64,000 bases of DNA from Candidatus Hermodarchaeota archaeon (GTDB lineage: Archaea > Asgardarchaeota > Hermodarchaeia > Hermodarchaeales > Hermodarchaeaceae): NCBI GenBank assembly GCA_016839805.1, contig JAEOTO010000033.1, positions 14,242 through 78,241 of the forward strand, written 5' to 3'. The number at the start of each line of letters is the position of its first letter. Position 1 is the stretch's first letter. The notes below the pieces were generated by a model. It was not told where the DNA came from and searched no databases. It worked only from the letters and a program-made list of their open reading frames with translations. Below, piece by piece: positions 1,201-36,455 of this stretch. Made by a program: the position numbers and the translations under genes.

Positions 1201-1238
1201 CCTAAAAAAGAAGTAAAAACAAATTTTCTTAGACATAA

Positions 1239-1787
1239 TTACTCAGCAAAGTGGATTCGAAATTCACACGCTGGATCGCCTTGGATGCGACTTGCTGTTT
1301 GTGTAACTCGGGCAGTGTACGGCAGGCTGAGATTATCAATCCAGCTTTGTAGAAGGCCTTCAAGCATTCCTGAAACAACTTCACAGTATCTTAGGTCAAG
1401 AGTAGCCTCGAAGCTGTCCTGTTGGCAGATTGGACAGGATTCCGAGCGAAGTAGAAGAGTGCGATCATCCGTGAATTCAAGGGAGTCAGGTATTGTTCCA
1501 GTTGCTAATTCCCAGTTCTTTGACAAGAACTCGTCTACGCGGTTGAGGAAGAGGTCAGGAGAATTGGGAAAGTAGTTATCTGGGGGTTTTCCGTAACGAC
1601 TGACGAGTCCCAAGAGGAGTTGTGTTGCCATGGATTTTCCTAATGCATGGAGGGCGCGTTCGATGGCTGTTGGATTACCTTGGTACTCCACTGAGAGCGA
1701 TTCCACTAATCGGAGATAGAAAATGGGTAGCAATGGTCCAGAGAATAGGGGTAATTTATCAGTGGGTGCAGGATTTTTGGAAGCCAT
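1239..1787 (-). CDS. V4R-domain (TRAPP Bet3-like fold) protein
   Basis: ALHALGKSMA helix, CPIC, YCEVVSGMLEG and C-terminal GDPACEFRI pattern. Confidence 0.75.
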   Translation of the reverse strand: MASKNPAPTDKLPLFSGPLLPIFYLRLVESLSVEYQGNPTAIERALHALGKSMATQLLLGLVSRYGKPPDNYFPNSPDLFLNRVDEFLSKNWELATGTIPDSLEFTDDRTLLLRSESCPICQQDSFEATLDLRYCEVVSGMLEGLLQSWIDNLSLPYTARVTQTASRIQGDPACEFRIHFAE

Positions 1788-1829
1788 CTTGTGTGTACCT
1801 CGACTTTTGCTTATGAAAAGCTATGCCTT

Positions 1830-3065
1830 TTACTCTTCGTTTGACTTAGTCTCTTCAGTAGATTTAGATTTGGATACCGTTTCTTTTACAGCAGATTTGA
1901 CTCGCGCAGCCCGTGAGGCTTTTGCGGGTGCTCGCTCACGGAGCTGACGTTCGGCTTCAGCAAGTGGTCCTGTAGGAATTGTGGTAGGTAAGGTGGGTGC
2001 CTGTCCAGTTAATTGGGCGATTTCAACCGATTTCTCTGCCCACAGAACTTGGGCTGGGTGGACGCCTGCTACACGCCAGTAAAAGAATCGATCCCAGAGC
2101 TTTTCTTCAATAGAAAGAACTCCTGCGGATAATGAAACAAGATTCAATCCTAAACGCTCAAATGCTGTAGCTACGACCTTACGGACTTCATCGCGGATTT
2201 CTGCTTCATCACGTAACGCACTCATGAATTCATGTTCTGAAAATTTGTCACGCATGACATTATCAATGAGTGTTTTGAGGTATTCAATGAGTTCCTGCGA
2301 GTTCATGGGAATTCGTTGGTCATGTAGCGTCGTGATGAGTTTACGGGAATCTTCGACAACAAAGGCAAAGAGTAGCCCATACGGCTCTTGCAGTCGTACA
2401 GATCGTTTAAAGTTAGTTTTGCCATCGGCGGTTTGCGTAGGAATGTCATATTCTTCACGGCGCCAAGACTTTCCAGTCCAGGTTAACCGAGCTAGATCTG
2501 ATGTTTGGGTGACCCCAGTATTAGCATAGACATGGACCCGACCAGTATAAATGAAAACAACATTTGTTTTAAAACCTTGACCTCGCCAACCGGTTTTAAT
2601 TAACGGTGAAGGGAAGGTTTCAATACTGTATGGAGTTTCACTCGGTTCCCACACTTCATATACTTTGAATTCGCGGTTACCGTTGTTGAATTCCTCGCCA
2701 TAGGCACAACATAACCAATCTGGAGGAACGTATATTTTGGCATCTTTTTCGATAATTTCAATTTGCTCCATATCACGTTCCAAGTCGGGGGGATGATAGA
2801 TAAACTGGGGTAATCGTGCGTCTGATTCAGAAATTTCCGCGCCCGAAGGAAGTGTACGCGTTACTTTCTGACCCGTTGAGAATCCACCGAATGCAGCGAT
2901 TCGTGTTAAGCGGCGGATTGATCGAATTGCTTGGGCGCCTCGATCTTTATGTGGAGCTTGAATCATTTGCGTCCAATAATTTTGTCCACCCAGATCACCG
3001 ATCGGAATGCTTGGATGCGGTCCTAGTACTGGGTCCGGAGCCATTAAACAGATAGTTTTTGCCAC
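1830..3065 (-). CDS. SPFH/band-7-like (YdjI-type) protein with low-complexity basic tail
   Basis: VRLQEPYG...VEDSRKLI and IRDEVRKVVATAFERLGLNLVSLS resemble the SPFH core; no TM segment seen. Confidence 0.55.
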   Translation of the reverse strand: MAKTICLMAPDPVLGPHPSIPIGDLGGQNYWTQMIQAPHKDRGAQAIRSIRRLTRIAAFGGFSTGQKVTRTLPSGAEISESDARLPQFIYHPPDLERDMEQIEIIEKDAKIYVPPDWLCCAYGEEFNNGNREFKVYEVWEPSETPYSIETFPSPLIKTGWRGQGFKTNVVFIYTGRVHVYANTGVTQTSDLARLTWTGKSWRREEYDIPTQTADGKTNFKRSVRLQEPYGLLFAFVVEDSRKLITTLHDQRIPMNSQELIEYLKTLIDNVMRDKFSEHEFMSALRDEAEIRDEVRKVVATAFERLGLNLVSLSAGVLSIEEKLWDRFFYWRVAGVHPAQVLWAEKSVEIAQLTGQAPTLPTTIPTGPLAEAERQLRERAPAKASRAARVKSAVKETVSKSKSTEETKSNEE

Positions 3066-3127
3066 ATGAAAGCCTCCTTCTTATAACAGCGATTGATTCC
3101 AACCTCAAATAACTTCTGGTATTGAGT

Positions 3128-3976
3128 TTAGAAACCGGTTATTTCATATCGGTCTCCTAGTTTTTCTTTTTTAGCTTCCTCCTCACTTCGCCATTCTTCG
3201 ATGTACTGTTGAATTTTTTGTTGCAGAACTTCGTTGCTTGATTGAGCTATCCAGTCGAGGTTAATATGGACATGGTCACCTCGAAGTGCGAGTGTTCGAG
3301 CCACTGAGTCAAAGTAGCCGCCTTGTCCTTTCTTCCCTAGAAACCTGATGAAAGTATTGAAGGTACCTTGTTTCTTATTTTGATAGCTTTCAAGCATACT
3401 TTCGGGGACAATTGACATTTGTTTATTGATGAGTTTACCTACTAATTCATAGATGGCTGTTTCGACCGTAGCTTTATGCTTCACTCCACTTTCTAGAAGT
3501 GTATAGAAGTCAATAAGTCCTGTGAAACATTGTTTGAAGAAATCATGGCTTGTTCGCTGGAAATCAAGAACTTCACCAGTGGCTTTTATGTACACAACAT
3601 CCTGCACAGCATCTGATCGCTCAACAACCAGATTCATGTGTTTTTTCCATTTCGTGAAACTTTGAGGATGCTCTTGAAGTTCAGGGAGATATACTAGAGG
3701 GACATTGATGATGATCCTACTGAGTTTAAGGGCTTTTTCAAGATCACCACGATAAGGTTCCGTAGGGGGTAATCCTTCCATTTCAGCTACGAAGCATGCG
3801 CGATAGCTAGTTAAAATGAAATGTCCGTTTTGACCCCGAACCATGAGAGGTTGAGTACCAGAACGGACTCCTTTAGCAATCTTTCCCTTTGCCACAAGAA
3901 GGAGTGTTTCTTCTTCGCGTGGTAAAATACTTTTGACGAGTTTCAGTTTCTCTGTTGGTTCCAGTTCCCACGTCAT
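3128..3976 (-). CDS. Hypothetical protein, N-terminal PH-like (GRAM/GLUE/bPH-type) domain suspected
   Basis: EETLLLVAKG...NGHFILTSYRACFVAE matches the G-x-h-h-LT-x-x-R-h-h-F PH-like signature; 282-aa ORF co-oriented with its neighbours. Confidence 0.5.
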   Translation of the reverse strand: MTWELEPTEKLKLVKSILPREEETLLLVAKGKIAKGVRSGTQPLMVRGQNGHFILTSYRACFVAEMEGLPPTEPYRGDLEKALKLSRIIINVPLVYLPELQEHPQSFTKWKKHMNLVVERSDAVQDVVYIKATGEVLDFQRTSHDFFKQCFTGLIDFYTLLESGVKHKATVETAIYELVGKLINKQMSIVPESMLESYQNKKQGTFNTFIRFLGKKGQGGYFDSVARTLALRGDHVHINLDWIAQSSNEVLQQKIQQYIEEWRSEEEAKKEKLGDRYEITGF

Positions 3977-4035
3977 GGCAGTTGACCAGCCTTTGTATGG
4001 TTGATTTTTCTACAATATGCTGATTGGATATTAGA

Positions 4036-6195
4036 CTATTGTCCAATGAATCGAGAAGCGAAAAGGTCAAATTGACTTAGAATTTCATTTGTAATACTGG
4101 GTTTTGTATTAGTTAATGCAGTTTTGAAATGAGTCATGGTTACTTGTGATGCTTCCAGATTTTGGCGAATCGCGGCTAAGACCGCTTTGCGGCATACATT
4201 TTCGATATCCGCACCTGAATATCCACTAGTTTCTGAAGCGAGTTGATCTAAGTTCACATCCTTAGCAATCGGCATGCGACGAGTATGAACCGTAAATATT
4301 GCGCGTCGAGCTTCTTCATCAGGTGGCGGGGTATAGATGAACATGTCAAATCGCCCTGGACGAAGTAGAGCGGTATCAATGATATCAGGACGATTGGTTG
4401 CTGCTAAAACGACTACACCTTGAAGTTTTTCCATCCCATCTAATTCAACGAGTAATTGATTGACAACCCGTTCACTAACACGGCTATCGAATCCAGAGCC
4501 CCGACGAGGAGCAAGATTATCCAATTCATCGATAAAAAGTACAGCAGGAGCTGCTTGTCGAGCGCGTCGAAAGATTTCAGCGATAATCTTCTCGGATTCA
4601 CCCACCCATTTGCTCATGACTTCTGCGCCGCGTATAGAAATGAAATTCGCTTGACTTTCTGTAGCTACTGCTTTGGCAAGAAGGGTTTTCCCGGTTCCCG
4701 GAGGTCCAAATAAGAGTACACCTTTTGGTGGATTGACATTGAACCGCGAGAAAATATCAGGTCGGCTTATGGGCAGCTCCACGGCCTCTCGAATCGCTTG
4801 TTTTGCGGTTTCCATTCCACCAACATCATCCCAGTGGACCATTGGAATTTCAATAGCGATTTCACGGAGTGCCGAAGGTTCGACGACTTGACGTGCTGTT
4901 CTAAAATCTTCAGAGGTTACCACAATTTGATTCATGACTTCAGGAGATACTTGCATTTGTTGTTCTTCGATTCGTGGGAGTACGCGACGTAAGGCCCCAA
5001 GAGCCGCTTCTTTTACGAGGAAAGCTAAATCAGAGCCAACAAATCCATGTGTTCCTTGAGCAAGTTGCTGTAAATCTACTGATGAATCCATGGGTACCCC
5101 ACGAGTGTGCACTTGTAATATTTCTAGCCGTCCGCGAGTATCTGGAACGCGAATGTGAATCTCACGATCAAAACGTCCAGGTCGGCGAAGAGCGGGATCG
5201 AGGGCTTCAAGTCGATTGGTCGCAGCAAGAATATAGACCTGATCGCGATCTTTGAGTCCGTCCATTAATGTAAGCAGTTGAGCGACAATTCGACTCTCCA
5301 TTCCACCAGATTCACGGCGTGATGCGATAGCATCAATCTCATCGATGAATATAATTGCAGGTTTGTTTTTTTCTGCTTCATCGAAGACTTCGCGCAGGAA
5401 TTTTTCGGATTCGCCATAATATTGGCTTACAATTTCGGGACCGTTGATTACTCGGAAGTAGGCTTCGCTTTCTGTAGCCACAGTTTTGGCGAGAAGGGTT
5501 TTTCCGCAGCCGGGTGGTCCATGTAGAAGAATTCCTTTAGGTGGTTCGATTTTAAGCCTGGTAAAGAGTTCAGGATGGCGTATCGGGAGTTCTACGATTT
5601 CGCGAATTCGATGAATCGCATCATCTAATCCACCGACATCGTCATATGTCACTGTAGCTACTGCTTGTATTTCCTCGGGCGCTTCTTTCAGCAATTGAAT
5701 TTCTGTATTCGCCGTTATGGTGACCGTTCCCGCAGGAACGGTTTTTGCTACATAGAATTTGGCTTCACCTAATGCAAAAGCTGCTTTTCCTACGGCAATA
5801 ACTATATCCTTTTTGATAGGTTTGTTGAGTAGGTTGGTTTTCAAGAGCGATGCTGCCAATTCTTGGCGATAATGAATCTCCTCACCCTTCAGCGGAGTTA
5901 ATACAATGCTTCTAGCGGGTTGTGTTTCAGTTCCATGGAGAGTCACCAAATCTCCGATGCGCACACCAGCGTTAAGCCTGGTGAGACCATCCATTTTGAT
6001 TACTGAACGATTGTGAAGTTTTTGGTCTCTGTAAGCCATGGCGCATATGCTTTTCTTTCCTACTATCTCAACTACAGAGCCATCTGGTAGCTGAAGTTGG
6101 TCTAAGAAAATAGGGTCAAGACGAACTGTGAAGCGTCCCACATCGACTGCACTGGCTTCAACAACCCGTAACGATGTCACAGACACTCTGGCCAC
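4036..6195 (-). CDS. cdc48: Cdc48/p97/VAT family AAA+ ATPase
   Basis: N-domain plus two AAA modules (GPPGCGKT, GPPGTGKT, IFIDEID/LFIDELD, RPGRFD). Confidence 0.96.
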   Translation of the reverse strand: MARVSVTSLRVVEASAVDVGRFTVRLDPIFLDQLQLPDGSVVEIVGKKSICAMAYRDQKLHNRSVIKMDGLTRLNAGVRIGDLVTLHGTETQPARSIVLTPLKGEEIHYRQELAASLLKTNLLNKPIKKDIVIAVGKAAFALGEAKFYVAKTVPAGTVTITANTEIQLLKEAPEEIQAVATVTYDDVGGLDDAIHRIREIVELPIRHPELFTRLKIEPPKGILLHGPPGCGKTLLAKTVATESEAYFRVINGPEIVSQYYGESEKFLREVFDEAEKNKPAIIFIDEIDAIASRRESGGMESRIVAQLLTLMDGLKDRDQVYILAATNRLEALDPALRRPGRFDREIHIRVPDTRGRLEILQVHTRGVPMDSSVDLQQLAQGTHGFVGSDLAFLVKEAALGALRRVLPRIEEQQMQVSPEVMNQIVVTSEDFRTARQVVEPSALREIAIEIPMVHWDDVGGMETAKQAIREAVELPISRPDIFSRFNVNPPKGVLLFGPPGTGKTLLAKAVATESQANFISIRGAEVMSKWVGESEKIIAEIFRRARQAAPAVLFIDELDNLAPRRGSGFDSRVSERVVNQLLVELDGMEKLQGVVVLAATNRPDIIDTALLRPGRFDMFIYTPPPDEEARRAIFTVHTRRMPIAKDVNLDQLASETSGYSGADIENVCRKAVLAAIRQNLEASQVTMTHFKTALTNTKPSITNEILSQFDLFASRFIGQ

Positions 6196-6284
6196 ACACC
6201 ATTTTCACTACTTGGTATGAAAGGACTTAGTATACCCCTCGCGAGCAGCATATTTAACTCCGGCGCCTGATAGGAGATTACAAG

Positions 6285-7157
6285 TTGAGAGTTATGTCTA
6301 CCCCAAAGCCAATTGAGGTTCTTTTTGATACAGGTCATAACGATGAAGTAGCTCCAGACGAACCAGAACTTTCCCTGTTAGGAGAACTGCTCAAAAAAAA
6401 TGCAATTAATTTTAACTTTACTAAGAACCCCCTTACCCCCGATTTATTTGAGAATTGTCACGTTTTGGTGCTTGGGAATCCTCTTGACGCAGCATTTACT
6501 TCAGATGAAATTTCAGCCATCGTTTCTTTTGTTGAATCGGGAGGAGGACTGTTATTGATTAGTGGAGCGACGATATTTGGAAAAGGCGGTGATTCGGCTC
6601 GTAGCACTAATCTTAACACAATAACAAAGGAATTCGACTTTGAATTTTCAGATAAGGCAATCGCCATTTCGGAGGAACAAATCACAGCCATACCAAGTGC
6701 GCAACATCCTGTCGTTAAAGGTATTCGTCAACTTGAGTTTACCACTGGAACAAGTATCAAACCAGGTGATACTAGCACTCATCTTTTTCGGGCAACAAAT
6801 ATTCCAGGTAGCCCGACAATAGTAATTGCTACAGAGAGTGGAAAGGGACGAATATTAGCAATCGGTGGTGCTACACCTTTCTTTAATGATCATATTCAGG
6901 CTAGCGATCATGACTCATTTATAATTCAAGCTCTTTATTGGCTAGCTGGAGTTTCACCCATTCCTTCAGTTACACGGTTAACGACTCCAAGTGAGGAAGT
7001 TGATGAAGTCCTAGCCCAGGAGGTAATTGATGACCTTCGGCAACAGCTTGAGCGCTTAGAACGAGAACTCAATGAGCTTAGAAATACAATCAATACTAGT
7101 TTGAAAGAAATGGAAAAAGTCATCCGAGAATTCCAACAAGATGAAGAGTCGACCTAG
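6285..7157 (+). CDS. GIFT (GldG/IFT52-like, DUF4350) domain protein with C-terminal coiled coil
   Basis: VLFDTGHN, VLVLGNP..AFTSDEISAIVSFVESGGGLLL and GKGRILAIG; heptad-rich C-terminus. Confidence 0.65.
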   Translation: MRVMSTPKPIEVLFDTGHNDEVAPDEPELSLLGELLKKNAINFNFTKNPLTPDLFENCHVLVLGNPLDAAFTSDEISAIVSFVESGGGLLLISGATIFGKGGDSARSTNLNTITKEFDFEFSDKAIAISEEQITAIPSAQHPVVKGIRQLEFTTGTSIKPGDTSTHLFRATNIPGSPTIVIATESGKGRILAIGGATPFFNDHIQASDHDSFIIQALYWLAGVSPIPSVTRLTTPSEEVDEVLAQEVIDDLRQQLERLERELNELRNTINTSLKEMEKVIREFQQDEEST

Positions 7158-7175: not shown

Positions 7176-7841
7176 CTATTTGGATGTATAAACAACTAGT
7201 TTTTCGATAGCTATTCGCCGCTCTAATTGGATTGCCCCAAGATTTTGTAAAGCCTGAAAATCTACAATAATTTGAAAAAGCGGTCGATTCAGTATGGCGG
7301 CTAGTTCTTCTATTGATCGATCATCATTAACAGCTTCTAGTAGTGGATGGAGTTTGGAAGGAACCTGGCTTTCGGTGACAGTATGAACACGAACTGGAAC
7401 ATACCGTTCAGTGACAGCAAATGGTCGAAAAAGATAATCAATTAACGGCTGAAATTCCCGGAATGGACTTAAATCACCTAACCAATCTTGTAAGAGTTCT
7501 CCTTTTTGAAGTTCAATTCTTTTAATAAGCATACGCATTCGCGTTCGAATGGCAGCGAGGTCATGGGTTGAAAATGCAGCAACGTAGATATTTTGCCCAT
7601 ATTCAATGAGAATCTTCACATCTTCTCGATCGATGACCCGTAACCGTCCATCTTCCCGCTCTAATGTTCGTAGTTGTTGACCTTCCTCTGAGATGCGCCC
7701 AACAAGATCAGATAAAAACATACTCACAGCTGATAGGAAACCGGTAACGAGATCAGGTTCCATATTTTCAATCTGGAAGTCTTTTTGCAATAAAGTCCGT
7801 CCATCCCGATAGACAACATACAGACTATACAGTTGGGCCAT
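7176..7841 (-). CDS. Longin-like domain plus C-terminal winged helix (NPRL2-like architecture)
   Basis: LYVVYRDGRTLL...DLVTGFLSAVSMF is typical of Asgard longin domains; C-terminal RSIEELAAILN...LQNLGAI looks like a wHTH; start set at MAQLY. Confidence 0.65.
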   Translation of the reverse strand: MAQLYSLYVVYRDGRTLLQKDFQIENMEPDLVTGFLSAVSMFLSDLVGRISEEGQQLRTLEREDGRLRVIDREDVKILIEYGQNIYVAAFSTHDLAAIRTRMRMLIKRIELQKGELLQDWLGDLSPFREFQPLIDYLFRPFAVTERYVPVRVHTVTESQVPSKLHPLLEAVNDDRSIEELAAILNRPLFQIIVDFQALQNLGAIQLERRIAIEKLVVYTSK

Positions 7842-7927
7842 ATCAAAGCACCAAGGTCTAATTCTCATTGATAGGTATGAAAAGAGATAAGCTTTACTAG
7901 AAAATAGTTAACGCAATAATAGCGCTA

Positions 7928-10504
7928 CTATGTTCGGGCTTGTGCGATTCGGTGGATTTCTCTGATGATTTCAGTGGGAGTTGTGAGTTCGTCTCCAATG
8001 TAAGTACGCCCTGAAGTGATATACGCCATATAAAATGCTAGAAATGGCACGAGTTTATCTTCTTTAATTCCAACCTCAATATAGTTGGCTTTATCAAGTT
8101 CATGGGCTCTTTTGTGAGCCCAATCTAAAATGACGTTATGATGGCGTTTGCCCTTAATTTTGAAGAACTCATGATGCAAATTAATTGTTATTAGCGGAAT
8201 ACGGTCACCTGCTAGGAGGAAACATTGGTGAAGCACGTCTGCGATGGCTTCCGGTAATCCCAAGTCAGGTGTGTCATTGCTGCTTAATTTGATATTCGGT
8301 AGGAAATCACTAAAGACGACGATCAGGGGAAGAGTACCAGGATTACGTCGTCGTTCGCGTTTAATGGTTTCACGAGCTCGTTTTAACCCGGCAGCAAGTG
8401 GGGTGTAACCAGAAAGTCGAAGGGTCATCAGTTTGGCCACTAAACGGGTCCAATTTGTGGTGGGAGTTTGCACTTCTGCAGCCCCCCAATCTTTCAATGC
8501 TATAAGTCCAACCCGATCTTTTGTACCCTCGAGACAGTTCTTAAAGGCAATCAGGGAGAGTTGGAGTTTTTCGAAATTTTTTACCATAGACACGCTTAGA
8601 TCGACAACGAAGATAATCGTGAGTGGCGTTCGACTACGAAAACGTTTTTCCCGAATATCACTTGCTCGAATCTTGACTCGGGGGGTTCGATTCGCTGCAG
8701 GATCTTGAAGAAGAGAAGCGGCCGTAATGGTTGCGGGAATATGAATATTCCGTGGCTTACCTGAAGGTAGTCTTGAACCTAATAGGACCCCTCCCTGAGC
8801 GGTTCTAGAATGTGCAGATCCAGCACGTCGCCCCACTTGTTGAATAGACCATTTCGGGGCTCGTTGTCGTCCGAAATAACGGGGTTCTAGTAAATCTTCA
8901 AGATGAAAGAGAGGTCTACCTTCCTCAAGTCGGATGAGTGAGGAGGCGGAAAAGGGTTTAGGGGACCTAGGTTGTTGTTGAATCGAGATTTTTGCAGATG
9001 ATGGGGTTGACGTGCCAATCGTTGGGGGGCTCGTAGATTCACCTCTATGTCTTGCACGATGATATTTTCCTCCCGGATCTGGTGGTCTATCTCCAGAGGC
9101 GAGAGAGGGCATCACGGAGTACGCACGTCTATAGCGCCGCATTATCCGTTCTAATAAGAGTACTAATCCTGCAGCAATAATGCCTCCAATTACGAAATTT
9201 ACGGGAAAGAGCGGGATTAGTAAACCAATTGCTAAGGCGATGACGATGTAGAAACATACAAATCCTAAATACGAGCATCGCCCTGGCGGACCTTTGCTAG
9301 GTGGGGTTCCAAAAAAACGCTGATCATCCTGATTGCTATCTAGCGGATAGTATTGACCAAATTTCCGAGTAAGCTTCTGGTGCTTCTCTTTATCAGAAGG
9401 GGATTTATCCTTCGATTGAGGGTCTTTCGTCTTAACTTTCTTTTTTGCTTCCTTCAAGGTGGAACTAATATCTGCACGAGTGGGAGGTTCTAAGATTCCA
9501 CGTTGTCGGGTTCGATGGCTAAGGGCTAGTGATGCAACTGTTTCAATGTCTTCAACTGTCACTTTCGTTCGACCATCAAAGGCTGCAAACGCCATGGCTG
9601 TCTTTGCGATTACTATATCTGGACGTGCACCATCTACTTGTAAACGTGAGGTAAGATTTGCGATAAGTTGCATCACGGCCTCAGGAATTACCACGTCTTT
9701 CATGCGTTCACGCGCTGCAGCGATTTCTTTGCTTAATTTCTCTTCTTTAGGGGCCCATTTTGCATTCATTGTTTTCGGATCACGTTCAAATGCAATATTC
9801 AACCGAATAATTTCGACACGTTCTTCTTCCGTAAAGGGGCGATGGATGGCAACATGGAGGGGAAATCGGTCTAGTAATTGGGGACGAAGTTCGCCTTCTT
9901 CTGGATTCATTGAACCAATGAAAATGAAACGGGCAGGATGACTTACTGAAATGCCTTCCCTTTCAACGACATTAACACCTGTGGCCGCAGCATCAAGAAG
10001 TGAATCAACGATGTGATCAGGAAGCAAATTCACTTCATCAACGTAAAGCAGATTCTGATTCGCATCAGCTAAAATCCCTGGTTTTAATGCAGCGACGCCA
10101 TCCCGAATAGCTCGTTCGACATCTAAACTACCAACGACCCGGTCCTCAGTAGCACTTAAGGGGAGATTTATCACGCGCATTTTACGTGTTTCAGTTTCGA
10201 GTTTCTCCTTCGCTTGAAGCTTCGTCAAGCAGGCCTCACAAAGGACAGAGTTATCATCAGTAGAGCAGCGGAATTGACAACCTTTTACGACTGGTATTTC
10301 AGGTAATAGAACTGCCAAGGAGCGAACAATCGTTGTTTTTCCTGTGCCTTTAGGTCCAGTGATGAGGAGACCTCCAATACGTGGATTGATGGCATTGAGT
10401 AGAAGAGCAAGTTTCAATTCATCATGATTGACAATAGCTGTGAAAGGAAGCGTTACCCGCGTTCCAGCCGTCTCATCTAGGACCAACGTGTGACCCTCAA
10501 CCAC
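7928..10504 (-). CDS. Mg/Co-chelatase ChlI/ChlD-like AAA+ ATPase with internal TM hairpin and C-terminal vWA domain
   Basis: [48 protein letters not shown]; vWA MIDAS DLSVS and TPL. Confidence 0.88.
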
Positions 10505-31247: not shown

Positions 31248-32294
31248 GTGTCGCGTCACCCAAAAGATAAGGATTTTGTGGAAACCACAGAAGGTTTGCT
31301 ATTCACAGTAGTTGGATATCTGCATCCTCCAGATGCATATACGGCTTATTTGAAGTACCGTCCAGATGCTGAAGGGAAATGGGAAAGGCAAGGCATCCAT
31401 TATCGTAGAATGATGCAAGTTTATAGTGCTGCCGAAGTTCAGTCGAGTATTAATTGGCTCCAGGAAAACCATCCTGAATATGTCTCACTTGATAGGGTTC
31501 GGGGCTTTGAATTAACGTTAGTACCCTGGAAGAATATTATTGCTTACTATTTGCCTGAAGTTCGACTTGTAGAGATAATAGGAGACCCGCAGGATCCATT
31601 AGAATCAAAGACCAGCGCCCTCGTCTCATTACTTTCTGAGGCTAGTGGAGTGCCCACGAACCGGTTTGGCATTACAGGTTCATTACTATTAGGGCTTCAT
31701 AATCCAATGTTCTCTGATATCGACTTACTGGTTTATGGCCGGGAAAATGCTGAACAAGTCCGTGATTCTATGGATCAAATGTTTGGTGAGAATAAGGTCA
31801 AGCCATATTCACCAGACGAGATTAGAGGATGGCAGTATCGCCAAGTGCAAACATTGGGTATTCCAGACGAATTTGAAGAGCAGATAGCCTGGTCTTACTG
31901 GCAGCGAGGTCGTTTCAACCAAACAGCGTTTTCTATTAATCCTGTATGTACTGATGCGGAGATAATGGTTGAATATGGACAGGAAACCTATTCTTCGGTT
32001 GGTCCAGTTGAATTCACAGCGACAATCATGGAGGATCAAGGAAGCCTTTTCATTCCTGCTCGATACTTGGTAGGTGATATTACGATGGAATTAGGTGATA
32101 TTGAACTCCCCGCGTTGACCGATGTCTTGTCATTTGAGGGCATATTTTCAGCGGTCTTTAATAAAGGCGACCAGGTTCGCATTCGAGGGACAGCTGAAGC
32201 GGTTCGAGATAAGGAAGGTAATATCATCCGGAACCAAGTAGTTGTGGGATCGTTATCTACTCAAGGATGGATTATTCGTCTCCCATCATCCTGA
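31248..32294 (+). CDS. Predicted archaeal nucleotidyltransferase (COG1665-like), copy 2
   Basis: DFVET.EGLLF.V.G..HPP, GITGS and SDIDLLVYG. Confidence 0.8.
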   Translation: MSRHPKDKDFVETTEGLLFTVVGYLHPPDAYTAYLKYRPDAEGKWERQGIHYRRMMQVYSAAEVQSSINWLQENHPEYVSLDRVRGFELTLVPWKNIIAYYLPEVRLVEIIGDPQDPLESKTSALVSLLSEASGVPTNRFGITGSLLLGLHNPMFSDIDLLVYGRENAEQVRDSMDQMFGENKVKPYSPDEIRGWQYRQVQTLGIPDEFEEQIAWSYWQRGRFNQTAFSINPVCTDAEIMVEYGQETYSSVGPVEFTATIMEDQGSLFIPARYLVGDITMELGDIELPALTDVLSFEGIFSAVFNKGDQVRIRGTAEAVRDKEGNIIRNQVVVGSLSTQGWIIRLPSS

Positions 32295-32392
32295 TGTTTC
32301 GCGTTTTTTTATGACCGTATCAGTTTTGAGTAAGAATTTTATTAGTGGACAGAGTCTAACGGTTGCAACCGATAGTGGAGTGATGAATTCTT

Positions 32393-32791
32393 ATGCCTAG
32401 CTTGGAAGTCGTATTGTTAACAGGTCGAACTCGACGACAGGGTGTAGGTCTTGAAGTAGGAAAATTGAGTGAGATATACTTTGAAGCAACAACGCAGATT
32501 CGTCTTGATCCTAAGGACCTTGAAAAGCTGAAAATCGAACCTGGTGATATCGTCGAAGTAACGACGGACCATGGCACCGTTGTGCTTCGAGCTGAGCAGG
32601 CACCCCGAGCTAGTGAAGGAATGGGCTTCATACCTTATGGACCATGGGCTAACTGTGTCATCGGCGGAGATACAGATAGCACAGGTATGCCCACAATGAA
32701 AGGATTGAAGGCAACTGTTACTCCAGCGCCCGATAAACAGGTGTTAAGCCTTCAGGAATTATTTGCAGAGATGCGCAGCGCTGCTAAATAG
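32393..32791 (+). CDS. fwdD: Formylmethanofuran dehydrogenase subunit D
   Basis: LLTGRT..QG, FIPYGPWAN and TDSTGMP..KG. Confidence 0.9.
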   Translation: MPSLEVVLLTGRTRRQGVGLEVGKLSEIYFEATTQIRLDPKDLEKLKIEPGDIVEVTTDHGTVVLRAEQAPRASEGMGFIPYGPWANCVIGGDTDSTGMPTMKGLKATVTPAPDKQVLSLQELFAEMRSAAK

Positions 32792-32824
32792 GTTGGTTTG
32801 GTTCAATTCAGATAGGGTAATTTC

Positions 32825-35008
32825 ATGATAACGATAATCATACTAGGTGTGGCGATATTCGCTGGGTTGCTCGCAATTCTAGTGGCGTTCATTTTCTTTC
32901 GATTAGTGATGCGAAGTGATGAAGGTAATGAACGTATGCGCGAAGTCAGTCAGCTGATTGAGGAGGGAGCACATTCCTTTCTCAGTATTCAATACCGTGT
33001 GCTCGCAGGCTTTGTCGTTGTGATGGCGATAATCATTACTCTTGCTGAGTTCTTTTTTAGTGGAACGGGGCTAGCCTCCGTTGCACTGGCAGTTGCCATT
33101 TCGTTTGTGATTGGTGCATTTGCTAGTATGACAGCTGGTTACGTAGGAATGGCGGTGGCAACCAAGGCCAATCGTCGGACTGCAGCTGCTGCCGCTGCTG
33201 GGGGATTAAATCCGGCTTTTCGTGTAGCCTTCCGTGCTGGTTCGGTAATGGGATTAATCATTAGTGGTATCGCCTTGATTGGAATTGGAGGGTTGTTTCT
33301 TACTTGGAATGTCATTTTCCCCTATTTCGGTCCCGTTGCCTTATGGGAGATTATCGCTGGTTTTTCCTTTGGTGCAAGTAGCATCGCTCTCTTCGCTCGA
33401 GCGGGTGGTGGTATTTACACTAAAACTGCTGATGTAGCAGCTGATATTGTGGGAAAAATCGAACAAAACATTCCTGAAGACGACCCGCGTAATCCTGCTG
33501 CAATAGCAGATGCAGTCGGAGACAATGTCGGCGACGTTGCTGGAACGGGAGCTGATATCTTTGATAGCAATATCGCTGCGATTCTTGCGGCAGCCATTCT
33601 TGGGGCTTCCATTGATCTCGTTTTGATCTTAAATGGTATCATTACGCCGATTCCTTACGGTTTAATTCCGCTGATCATAGCAGCTCTCGGGGCGTTAGCG
33701 TCAGTGGCAGGTGTTTTTGCTGTTCGGACACATGATTATTGTGAACCTGATTGTTCACTGAACCGTGGAACCTACTTTGCTACTATTCTCTTTGCTATTC
33801 TTGTTGTAATCGTTCTATTCTTACTCCAGATACCCATCGTGATTGCCATTTCCGGCGTACTGGGGCTTTTAACCGGAGTACTCATTGGTTTTGTGTCAGC
33901 TGTGTTTACCAGCGATTATGGAGCGGGACGATTCCAACCGGTTCAGAGCATGGTCCGATCATCGGAAACCAGTCCTGCCACTCTTGTGTTATCCGGTTAT
34001 TCCTATGGCTTGCTCAGTACGATTCCATCTGTTGTTGGGATTGTTATTGCGCTGGTTGCATCGTTTGTCCTTGGAGCTCTGATTCCTGTTCCGGGTAATA
34101 TTGGGTTCTGGCAAGCGGGAGTATTTTCTGTGGCTATTGCGGCTGTTGGCTTGCTTGCAACCAATGGTCTTGTAGTGAGTTCTGATGCTTATGGGCCAAT
34201 TGTTGACAACGCCCGTGGGATTATCGAACAATCAGGAGCCCCGGAGGAAGCTATTGAAGCATGTGATAAGCTTGATGCTTTAGGGAATACGACGAAGGCG
34301 ATAACGAAGGGTTTTGCCATTGGAGCGACAGGATTCACGGTAATTGCACTTTTTGCCGCGTATATTCAACTTGCCTCTAATATGACTGGAGGGATTATCT
34401 TCATTGATTTGCTAAATCCCGTCGTACTTGCGGGAGCCTTGATCGGTGGAATTTTGCCAGCGGGTTTCTCTGCTGCATTGATTCTTGGTGTCCAAAAAAA
34501 TGCAGATAAACTCATCCGGGAGATTCGACGTCAATTCCGAGAAGACCCAGGTATACTCGAAGGCACAGCAACCCCTGATTACGATCGTGGCATCAAAATT
34601 GCGACAGCAGGTGCGCTTCGGGAACTTCTTCCAGCAACCATTGCCGCGATTGTCGTCACTATTATTACGGGCGTCGTGTTGGGATTAGAAGCCTTGGCCG
34701 CGTATCTAGCAGGAGCGGTGATTACTGGATTGATCCTCGCGCTGTTCATGGATAATGCTGGGGGAGCTTGGGATAATACAAAGAAATTCATCGAATCGCC
34801 AGAATACAATCATGACCGAGAAGATTATCACATCGTTCATTCCGCTGCGATAACGGGTGACACTATTGGTGATCCCTTCAAGGACACGGCAGGCCCATCA
34901 ATCAATACGTTGTTGACTGTAATCTCACTTACAGCAACCCTCTTCCTACCACTAATTTTTGCTGGTCATCTTTGGATTCAAAGCCTTATCCTCATTCTAA
35001 TCCCATGA
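32825..35008 (+). CDS. hppA: Membrane-bound ion-translocating pyrophosphatase, K+-independent type
   Basis: GGGIYTK.ADV.AD.VGK.E..IPEDDPRNPA, DAYGPI.DNA, GNTTKA and GDPFKDTAGP. Confidence 0.95.
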   Translation: MITIIILGVAIFAGLLAILVAFIFFRLVMRSDEGNERMREVSQLIEEGAHSFLSIQYRVLAGFVVVMAIIITLAEFFFSGTGLASVALAVAISFVIGAFASMTAGYVGMAVATKANRRTAAAAAAGGLNPAFRVAFRAGSVMGLIISGIALIGIGGLFLTWNVIFPYFGPVALWEIIAGFSFGASSIALFARAGGGIYTKTADVAADIVGKIEQNIPEDDPRNPAAIADAVGDNVGDVAGTGADIFDSNIAAILAAAILGASIDLVLILNGIITPIPYGLIPLIIAALGALASVAGVFAVRTHDYCEPDCSLNRGTYFATILFAILVVIVLFLLQIPIVIAISGVLGLLTGVLIGFVSAVFTSDYGAGRFQPVQSMVRSSETSPATLVLSGYSYGLLSTIPSVVGIVIALVASFVLGALIPVPGNIGFWQAGVFSVAIAAVGLLATNGLVVSSDAYGPIVDNARGIIEQSGAPEEAIEACDKLDALGNTTKAITKGFAIGATGFTVIALFAAYIQLASNMTGGIIFIDLLNPVVLAGALIGGILPAGFSAALILGVQKNADKLIREIRRQFREDPGILEGTATPDYDRGIKIATAGALRELLPATIAAIVVTIITGVVLGLEALAAYLAGAVITGLILALFMDNAGGAWDNTKKFIESPEYNHDREDYHIVHSAAITGDTIGDPFKDTAGPSINTLLTVISLTATLFLPLIFAGHLWIQSLILILIP

Positions 35009-35039
35009 ATCTATAATAAACTAAATGCTCATTTCAATG

Positions 35040-36455
35040 TTAGATATCGCCCTCTTTGATGAGCCATCGTTGACGGCTTTCATCCCATCGAGTATAGGTG
35101 TCAACTGCCGAGGGTGTGCCGATGTTATCTCCCCGGCGAACAGCTACTACGTCCGTCACACCAGAGTAATTGCTCAAAGCCTGTACAAGCTGACCGGTGA
35201 TTGCTCCACAGCGACTGGGTTGATGGAAGGAGATGAAGACTCCGGAATCAAGAATGGAAATAAAGGAATATGGCAAAAGGGAGGGTAAAAGAGCAACTTG
35301 ATCACGGATTTCGTTGTTGCATTGAACAAGTAGTGTAACAAAGGATTCGAAAAACGGCGCTTCGTAATAGACCATAGGCGCGTGGATTTCTTCGTTGCGA
35401 AATCGGAGAAGTTTTGCCCAGATAGTTTTTTTGGACAGTTCGAATCCGCGTTTATCTAGTTCCTTCTTGATGAACTCGATGTTTAATGGTCGTACATGGT
35501 TGCGTGCTAGTTGTCCAAGCAGAAAATCTAGTTGGCTAAAATGCATAGGTTCAGAATATTTCAATCCATGGGGTTTGGGGATAGAATAACTATGAGATTG
35601 GATAAATTGCAGCATGGCTTCTGAGACGAGTGGAGAATCGCATATCCATGAATTAGATTTAGTATCATAGGCATCAAATGACATAGTATAGGCGGCGTCG
35701 AGAGTCCTCGCGATTGTCAAATCTTGAAAAAACGCATTCTGAAGCCAGGTTAATCTTTGATTAAACAACTGGTGTCCTTTGGGTTGATCTGGAATTGTGA
35801 AAGTCATGAACCCAATACGATAGTCTTCATCAAAGGTGAAAGCTCTTAGAAACAGAGGTCGTTCGCGCTGGATAAATTGCACTAATTCCTTTGAGTGGTC
35901 AAGTGATTTTGTGCGAAAGATTATGAGCATATGCGCGAGTTTGAATTTATGATAATCAAGAAAATTTGCGACGGTAAAACCAAAGTAACGGCGAAGATCC
36001 TCTAACTCTTTTCGAATGGTGCGAGGAGTTGAATTAACTTTTCTCGCTAATTGGCTACTAGGAATAACAGGGTCATCATAGAGGTGAAGTAGAAGTCGAA
36101 CTTTTCGTGGAGACAACCTGAGTTCTAGTGGATAGGGAGGTAAGTAGGAGAAGGCTGTCATGATGTCGATGATTCGGTGAACATCAGTTATTTCGTACCG
36201 TTCGATTAGATCAAGTCGTTGTTCAAAGAAATCAGCTAACTCAGGGCTAGAATCTAGGTGCGCAGCAAAGGAAATGCGAGGATGTGGAGGAGGAAACTTT
36301 TCAGAATCAGGAATCGGTTCGCCTCGAGCCTTTTTGATGAATAAGAGAGCATTTGCTAAAAAGAGTTCAAGACTTTTCCTATCTCCTTTAGGCTGAGCCT
36401 TCCGAATAATGCGATTCGTTCGTTCTTCCAGTGACGTCTCTGAAACAAGCTTCAT
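35040..36455 (-). CDS. Uncharacterised double-wHTH / Lrp-AsnC-like regulator, paralog 4
   Basis: LSPRKVRLLLHLYDDP..SSQLARKVNSTPRTIRKEL; ends RWDESRQRWLIKEGDI like paralog 2. Confidence 0.7.
   Translation of the reverse strand: MKLVSETSLEERTNRIIRKAQPKGDRKSLELFLANALLFIKKARGEPIPDSEKFPPPHPRISFAAHLDSSPELADFFEQRLDLIERYEITDVHRIIDIMTAFSYLPPYPLELRLSPRKVRLLLHLYDDPVIPSSQLARKVNSTPRTIRKELEDLRRYFGFTVANFLDYHKFKLAHMLIIFRTKSLDHSKELVQFIQRERPLFLRAFTFDEDYRIGFMTFTIPDQPKGHQLFNQRLTWLQNAFFQDLTIARTLDAAYTMSFDAYDTKSNSWICDSPLVSEAMLQFIQSHSYSIPKPHGLKYSEPMHFSQLDFLLGQLARNHVRPLNIEFIKKELDKRGFELSKKTIWAKLLRFRNEEIHAPMVYYEAPFFESFVTLLVQCNNEIRDQVALLPSLLPYSFISILDSGVFISFHQPSRCGAITGQLVQALSNYSGVTDVVAVRRGDNIGTPSAVDTYTRWDESRQRWLIKEGDI

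Follow-up and report, generated by a model that had tools for sequence, protein, structure and literature searches.

Gene content of the locus

We have analyzed a stretch of 64,000 nucleotides from a Candidatus Hermodarchaeota genome (the window), which corresponds to positions 14242-78241 of contig C23 in a 2.3-Mb metagenome-assembled genome; all positions given below follow the numbering of the window. It carries a run of four genes on the minus strand which we discuss here as a candidate lineage-specific Cdc48 module. The first encodes a Cdc48/VAT paralog, the third in this genome, with N, D1 and D2 domains (P0001; 4036..6195, 719 aa, matching TIGR01243), and is followed by genes for an orphan soluble protein whose PH-like N-terminal domain is unconfirmed (P0002, or P2; 3128..3976, 282 aa), for a derived SPFH protein of the YdjI/Band_7_1 type devoid of transmembrane segments (P0003, or P3; 1830..3065, 411 aa) and for a TRAPPC3/Bet3-like V4R protein with a predicted Cys4 zinc site (P0004, or P4; 1239..1787, 182 aa). 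According to the open reading frame listing the successive intergenic gaps (Cdc48-P2, P2-P3 and P3-P4) measure 59, 62 and 42 nt, and indeed the initial annotation of this DNA, which reported four same-strand genes separated by 42-62 nt, was correct as to coordinates, orientation and gap sizes. All four have full-length orthologs without internal stops, at 59-97% identity, in every genome of the genus (14/14) as well as in metagenome contigs, which indicates that they are real genes.

The Cdc48 paralog and its C-terminus

Judged from its sequence, P0001 is a bona fide Cdc48: its TIGR01243 CDC48 score is 929 bits against a cut-off of 803, and its domains comprise CDC48_N, CDC48_2, two AAA and two AAA_lid_3. 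The Walker A (GPPGCGKT and GPPGTGKT) and Walker B (DEID and DELD) motifs are intact in both rings and the pore-1 loops are aromatic (QYYG in D1, KWVG in D2); with such motifs and loops the protein should be competent to thread substrates. The genome has two further Cdc48 genes, on contigs C4 and C46. When 53 Asgard Cdc48 proteins are placed in a tree, these two copies each group with sister-genus orthologs, and the cluster Cdc48 forms a separate long-branched clade (stem 0.58, Shimodaira-Hasegawa-like approximate likelihood ratio test support 100) together with the copy from the most divergent contig recovered (L046), which is the sister of the genus clade. An approximately unbiased test rejects a clade of the cluster Cdc48 with paralog B (p 0.004) and does not reject one with paralog A of family f1 (p 0.125). 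With respect to its paralogs, the cluster protein is 30-37% identical in the N domain and 52-62% identical in D1 and D2.

We have compared the C-terminus with the proteasome-docking HbYX pattern, taken as [LVIMGAPFYW][FY]x at the very end of the chain after the description by Forouzan et al. (2012) of a small or hydrophobic residue followed by a penultimate Phe or Tyr (PMC3493965). P0001 ends in ...SRFIGQ, and the pattern fails in the five complete C-termini of the cluster type (IGQ, FLG, LGQ, LRK and VGG, 5/5). In the same genome it is present in paralog A (PYA), in paralog B (PFA) and in a PAN-like ATPase (IYG). The ending in FIGQ without HbYX had been pointed out in the initial annotation and is borne out, as the pattern fails here and passes in both other Cdc48 copies; so is the notion of a specialised Cdc48 paralog, in view of the separate long-branched clade, the divergent N domain and the missing motif. 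Some caution is needed, since many Asgard Cdc48 paralogs of other families likewise fail the pattern and the HbYX-less CDC48-C of Methanosarcina mazei, which fails to activate the 20S proteasome, provides a precedent (PMC3493965). The M. mazei protein shares with the cluster copy the N-D1-D2 architecture, an intact motor, a C-terminus that fails the pattern and the coexistence with HbYX-bearing paralogs, whereas the cluster copy belongs to a long-branched lineage-specific clade and is always followed by the three genes. We know of no partners of M. mazei CDC48-C.

Some further features of Asgard Cdc48 proteins were noted along the way. Orthologs of paralog A in many other Asgard families (loci L053-L073) end in Y-[LM]-[GTAV], which puts Tyr at position -3 (for example PTYLG, TSYLA and LPYMT); these fail the canonical HbYX pattern, and the ending may be a shifted docking motif. 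Paralog B, at about 32012-35590 (plus strand) of contig C46, forms an open frame of 1193 aa. It contains an insert of 459 aa that starts with Cys, ends in HN|S directly before the D2 pore loop SKWVGESE, hallmarks of an intein, and is not present in the orthologs of genomes G014 and G015. Another HbYX-less Cdc48, ending in EKMKELI and weakly placed as sister to the cluster clade, occurs in family f14 (L101:5655-8645, L133:2935-5832 and L134:4-2850); in these three genomes of one genus, it is followed by a convergent gene for a 232-aa winged helix-turn-helix (wHTH) and V4R protein, itself divergent from an ABC transporter gene.

The SPFH protein

P3 is a derived SPFH protein of the YdjI/Band_7_1 type lacking a transmembrane anchor. 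The Band_7 score of the window protein lies just at the threshold (23.7 bits, cut-off 23.6), but Band_7 is matched in 15 of 15 homologs, with a best E-value of 1.3e-7. A P3 profile also matches bona fide Band_7_1 proteins with a zinc ribbon from Asgard family f6, with E-values down to 6e-11, and the two share common motifs over residues ~85-360, with inserts in P3; these distant relatives sit in unrelated neighbourhoods. About 85 N-terminal residues of P3 extend beyond the region alignable to Band_7_1 relatives, and the C-terminal zinc ribbon of the YdjI-like relatives is missing, a basic and then acidic low-complexity tail being found in its place.

The AlphaFold2 model is confident only in the core, residues 110-315, with a predicted local distance difference test score (pLDDT) of 60-87, and it presents an SPFH domain followed by long helices, matching cage-forming SPFH proteins. 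In a Foldseek search of the PDB, 19 of the 20 top-ranked matches listed are SPFH proteins, with probabilities near 1 and E-values from 7e-4; stomatin, prohibitin, flotillin, HflK/C, erlin and the major vault protein are among the matches, as are the FtsH-HflK/C structures 7vhq and 9cz2. The template-modelling scores of these matches are low on account of the helices and the disordered ends. A comparison of the P3 profile with PDB sequences gave no SPFH match, so that the structural assignment was supplied by the fold search. Together with the Band_7 matches of the homologs it upholds the SPFH call made initially. P3 has no transmembrane helix or hairpin, as its maximum hydropathy in the KD19 scan is 1.24 and no window exceeds 1.6, and no other cluster protein is as well conserved (71-87% identity).

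Within the N-terminal extension, residues 40-68 contain an invariant RRLxRxAAFGGFSTG. The p97-binding VIM motif has the form RX5AAX2R (PMC5468458), and the R51-x5-A57-A58 of P3 resembles its core, the final Arg being missing; this resemblance is a lead only.

The V4R and orphan proteins

The comparison with structures confirms P4 as a TRAPPC3-like V4R protein that keeps a predicted Cys4 zinc site. Its family profile matches the PDB entries 7yh3 (E 3.9e-5, residues 17-179 to 8-157) and 7yh2 (E 3.6e-4), both annotated as 'TRAPPC3 from Thorarchaeota', over the full length of P4, and C118, C121, C135 and C174, with little or no variation in the family, line up with Cys residues of the 7yh3 chain. 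The V4R identity given in the initial annotation is upheld by these two results. By itself the window protein stays below the Pfam cut-offs for TRAPP (16.9 bits, cut-off 27) and V4R (12.7 bits, cut-off 31), and among its homologs TRAPP is matched in 18/21 and V4R in 17/21, mostly below the curated cut-offs (best 1.9e-6). Tran et al. (2024) have described the Thorarchaeota TRAPPC3 as a homodimer that binds zinc via four Cys and has a hydrophobic cavity, and have proposed ligand binding for archaeal TRAPPC3 (PMC10933270). P4 thus resembles the Thorarchaeota proteins (7yh2, 7yh3) and bacterial V4R domains in its full-length profile match, its four Zn-binding Cys and its similar size; it differs from the former in that the similarity only reaches about E 1e-5. 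It differs from TRAPP in being encoded without other TRAPP-like subunits, a putative longin-type gene lying 5.4 kb away in the block of genes described below, and a domain scan detected no GTPase gene among the block genes. One P4 ortholog (genome G007, L024:4577-5233; 60% identity) reaches about 215 aa because of an internal insertion.

A different result was obtained for P2, which has no Pfam or NCBIfam match, even when Pfam was searched at E up to 10 with 20 homologs and half-proteins. Its profile retrieves only its own cluster from 1.84 billion representative sequences and nothing relevant from the PDB, where matches are at chance level, and the AlphaFold2 model built from a 20-sequence alignment is unusable (mean pLDDT 33). 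The neighbours in ESM features for which a Pfam family is shown belong to PH-GRAM, GLUE, BBS5 and bPH_3, with scores of 0.85-0.90, which are too low to count as anything beyond leads. Aligning the N-terminal half of P2 with 14 Asgard bPH_3 domains by hhalign gave a probability of 0.1, equal to that of reversed and C-terminal controls. The description of the second gene as PH-like is consequently left unconfirmed, with the ESM neighbours remaining as leads. A SUI1/eIF1-like C-terminus was considered and set aside, since Pfam searches with the entire protein and with its halves gave it no support.

Expression signals

The Cdc48 gene and a divergent GIFT-domain gene are separated by 89 nt (6196..6284), and this region contains GGAGTTAAATAT, some 55 nt upstream from where Cdc48 starts and identical or nearly so in all loci of the genus. 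We regard it as a candidate bidirectional TATA box and B recognition element, which would serve as promoter. Shine-Dalgarno motifs (AGGAGG or GAGGT) precede the internal genes, and no run of five or more T is found in any gap within the cluster. Past the last gene, P4, the convergent gap (1201..1238, minus strand) has T5 and T6 runs that are archaeal terminator-like; among the 12 loci examined, T5+ runs occur in this position in 4. Location on the same strand, short gaps, ribosome-binding sites and T-runs only after the last gene are thus the operon features observed, and the signals fit co-expression of the four genes, which would presumably be co-transcribed.

The spacer between P2 and P3 (3066..3127, minus strand) carries GTTATTTGA and a strong AGGAGG Shine-Dalgarno motif. 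Its length of 62 nt and its conserved blocks, CACCAnnAGTTATTTGA ... TCGC ... GAAGGAGG, are the same in 11 loci, including the most distant one. The spacer, whose conservation is unusual, may hold an internal promoter from which the SPFH and V4R genes would be expressed additionally. An RNA structure in the spacer was considered and rejected (-1.3 kcal/mol, no covariation).

Conservation and distribution

The order Cdc48-P2-P3-P4 does not vary among the 14 genus genomes, and all public contigs covering these genes show it too; on the most divergent of them the proteins are only 56-74% identical (P2 62%, Cdc48 D2 56%). Orthologs of P3 and P4 were found in all genus genomes searched; the sister-genus genomes searched (2-4 genomes with a completeness of 80-83%) had none, and neither had 59-60 further Asgard genomes, and all loci with these genes belong to one genus-level lineage. 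As evidence for a unit, this shared distribution is stronger than the conserved order. Synteny across the Asgard archaea, which the initial annotation had proposed to survey, thus holds throughout the genus and on the most divergent contig and fails beyond, none of the three accessory genes having been found in the sister genus or in the sampled Asgard genomes of other families; an Asgard module in the sense of a general feature is not what the data describe, the cluster being confined to a single lineage.

The limits of the unit can be inferred from the sister genus. In the window, the cluster is flanked on one side by an aldehyde:ferredoxin oxidoreductase (AFOR) gene (1-1200, convergent to P4), and on the other, beyond two more genes, by a gene for a ChlI/MoxR-type AAA+ protein fused to a vWA domain (MoxR-VWA; 7928-10504, minus strand). 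The two genes in between encode an IFT52-like GIFT-domain protein, divergent from Cdc48 (6285..7157, plus strand; IFT52_GIFT 32.9 bits, cut-off 27.2), and a 230-aa putative longin-type protein (7176..7868, minus strand) whose orthologs are restricted to the genus (67-75% identity). Since MoxR-VWA and AFOR are directly adjacent and convergent in three sister-genus contigs (L130-L132), the genes for the 230-aa protein, GIFT, Cdc48, P2, P3 and P4 constitute one presence/absence block of 6.6 kb. In agreement, GIFT orthologs occur in 8 of 9 genus genomes and in none of 3-4 sister-genus genomes.

Relation to known systems and to membranes

The initial annotation had proposed membrane-facing adaptors on the analogy of p97 and erlins in degradation associated with the endoplasmic reticulum (ERAD). 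The membrane part of this proposal is unsupported: in a KD19 hydropathy scan none of the four proteins (0/4) has a hydrophobic segment compatible with a transmembrane helix, and the SPFH protein is of the cytosolic YdjI type. Also, no ubiquitin-like or E3 gene is present that would back the ERAD analogy.

In Bacillus, YdjI (SamI) is cytosolic and recruits PspA (PMC13713150), and reaches the membrane via partners, which fits the anchor-less P3, although the block has no obvious candidate for a partner of this kind. YdjI-like SPFH proteins are also encoded with Vps4-like ATPases in the 'Meth_adaptin' loci of methanogens (Makarova et al. 2024, PMC11188069). Both the B. subtilis PspA-YdjGHI (SamGHI) system and the archaeal Vps4-like loci have in common with the cluster an SPFH protein of the Band_7_1 subfamily without a transmembrane segment of its own, encoded with a remodelling system, and the ATPase of the archaeal loci is a Cdc48-related AAA protein. 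The cluster differs from these systems in having no PspA/ESCRT-III gene, no membrane anchor gene and no zinc ribbon, in the 85-aa N-terminal extension and the inserts of P3, and in that its ATPase is a two-ring Cdc48 rather than Vps4.

The closest functional analogues would be AAA+ motors that work with SPFH scaffolds, the YdjI-type proteins standing nearer by family. In bacteria FtsH works inside HflK/C, and in eukaryotes p97 works with the SPFH erlins and the m-AAA protease with prohibitin. The cluster is similar to FtsH-HflK/C and to p97-erlin1/2 in pairing an AAA+ unfoldase with an SPFH protein, which in the P3 model consists of an SPFH domain and long helices. However, the SPFH proteins of those systems are membrane-anchored, whereas an anchor was not found in P3, and the systems include a protease (FtsH) or ubiquitin ligases, whereas neither protease nor ubiquitin-like genes were found here.

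Proposed function and alternative explanations

We interpret the four genes as a lineage-specific Cdc48 module, built on an unfoldase that would act without the proteasome and recognise, through its diverged N domain, what the genes downstream encode, and give this reading a probability of roughly one half. The four proteins probably work together; their physical contacts, oligomerisation, ligand binding and any membrane role are what we infer. The Cdc48 paralog would unfold substrates without docking on the 20S proteasome, its N domain being tuned to the partners encoded downstream. The YdjI-type SPFH protein would oligomerise into a ring or basket scaffold, like other SPFH proteins, and this anchor-less scaffold would reach a membrane only via partners. 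The orphan P2, the invariant N-terminal extension of P3, or both, may recruit the N domain of Cdc48. The TRAPPC3/V4R-like P4 is likely the ligand- or lipid-binding part: as a Zn-Cys4 dimer it might bind a small hydrophobic ligand or lipid and so gate or target the complex. The ATPase would then remodel or disassemble the scaffold, or extract clients held by it.

Several observations weigh against a dedicated module of this kind. No lipid-binding domain is confirmed in the four proteins, which moreover lack transmembrane segments; the putative internal promoter in the P2-P3 spacer makes separate transcripts possible; all evidence comes from one lineage, the combination having turned up independently in none of the other Asgard families sampled; and the genus shows collinearity all the way from DinB to AFOR, so that conserved order could be mere recency and is, when taken alone, weak evidence. 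The last three of these would also speak for neighbours devoid of a common function, that is, for an extra Cdc48 next to three unrelated lineage-specific genes in a young lineage with a collinear genome: collinearity reaches well past the four genes in all genus loci, the SPFH gene possibly has its own promoter and the combination is absent elsewhere among the sampled families. We consider this explanation possible, if somewhat unlikely, since all four genes share a narrow distribution and are jointly missing in the sister genus, they follow one another in unchanged order even on the most diverged contig, at 56-74% protein identity, and they are tightly spaced, with Shine-Dalgarno motifs and without internal T-runs.

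The identity of P4 brings in another alternative, in which the V4R protein senses a hydrophobic molecule and controls Cdc48 in trans as a ligand-gated AAA+ switch, with the SPFH and orphan proteins as clients or scaffolds. V4R sensor domains control an AAA+ domain in cis in activators of the XylR/DmpR/PoxR type. The V4R domain of PoxR binds phenols and TRAPPC3 binds palmitate (PMC10933270), which adds to the V4R/TRAPPC3-like identity and Zn site of P4 in favour of such a switch, as does the HbYX-less Cdc48 of family f14 that adjoins a wHTH-V4R protein in three genomes. However, the bacterial precedent concerns a different AAA+ clade, and in f14 the V4R gene converges on Cdc48 and diverges from the ABC transporter gene, whose regulator it more likely encodes; altogether the switch appears improbable. 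Even less probable is a role of the AAA+ motor and the SPFH scaffold in defence, the block then being an optional island against stress or viruses. The block is indeed lineage-restricted and was gained or lost as a unit, and PADLOC returns generic AAA matches to its IetA and TRIP13 models, but P3 and P4 have no PADLOC match and no defence-specific partner or effector (nuclease, protease or toxin) accompanies them; the block also occupies the same position in all genus genomes, instead of being strain-variable, and no integrase or mobility gene lies among the flanking genes scanned.

Returning to the module of co-operating proteins, each component is of a known family, and Asgard archaea are known to have all but the orphan P2. 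Neither this combination nor an archaeal Cdc48 with dedicated encoded partners is described in the literature searched. Eukaryotic p97 is defined by its adaptors. To our knowledge no archaeal Cdc48 cofactors have been characterised, and an HbYX-less Cdc48 whose gene is in every case accompanied by those of at least three small soluble partners offers a short and testable list of candidate adaptors or clients. In its boldest form, which we hold to be unlikely, the proposal is that in this cluster a prokaryotic Cdc48 would, for the first time, have a cofactor set dedicated to it: through an orphan adaptor the unfoldase would be brought to an SPFH basket that is soluble and to a TRAPPC3-like dimer that binds a lipid or ligand, the whole being co-inherited with the putative longin-type and the IFT52-like GIFT proteins, as a compact archaeal machine made of folds known from eukaryotic trafficking and membrane quality control. 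In any case, the cluster places an AAA+ motor and an SPFH scaffold together with Asgard trafficking folds (TRAPPC3, GIFT and putative longin); its bearing on eukaryogenesis is limited because of the restriction to one genus-level lineage.

The adjoining MoxR-VWA gene

A general linkage of MoxR-VWA and Cdc48 in Asgard archaea was considered and rejected, as the adjacency is found in genome G045 only and not in its congeners. MoxR-VWA is kept by the sister genus and is the only membrane-type protein adjoining the block, with a strongly hydrophobic stretch around residue 415 that reaches a KD19 value of 2.78, 31 windows being above 1.6.

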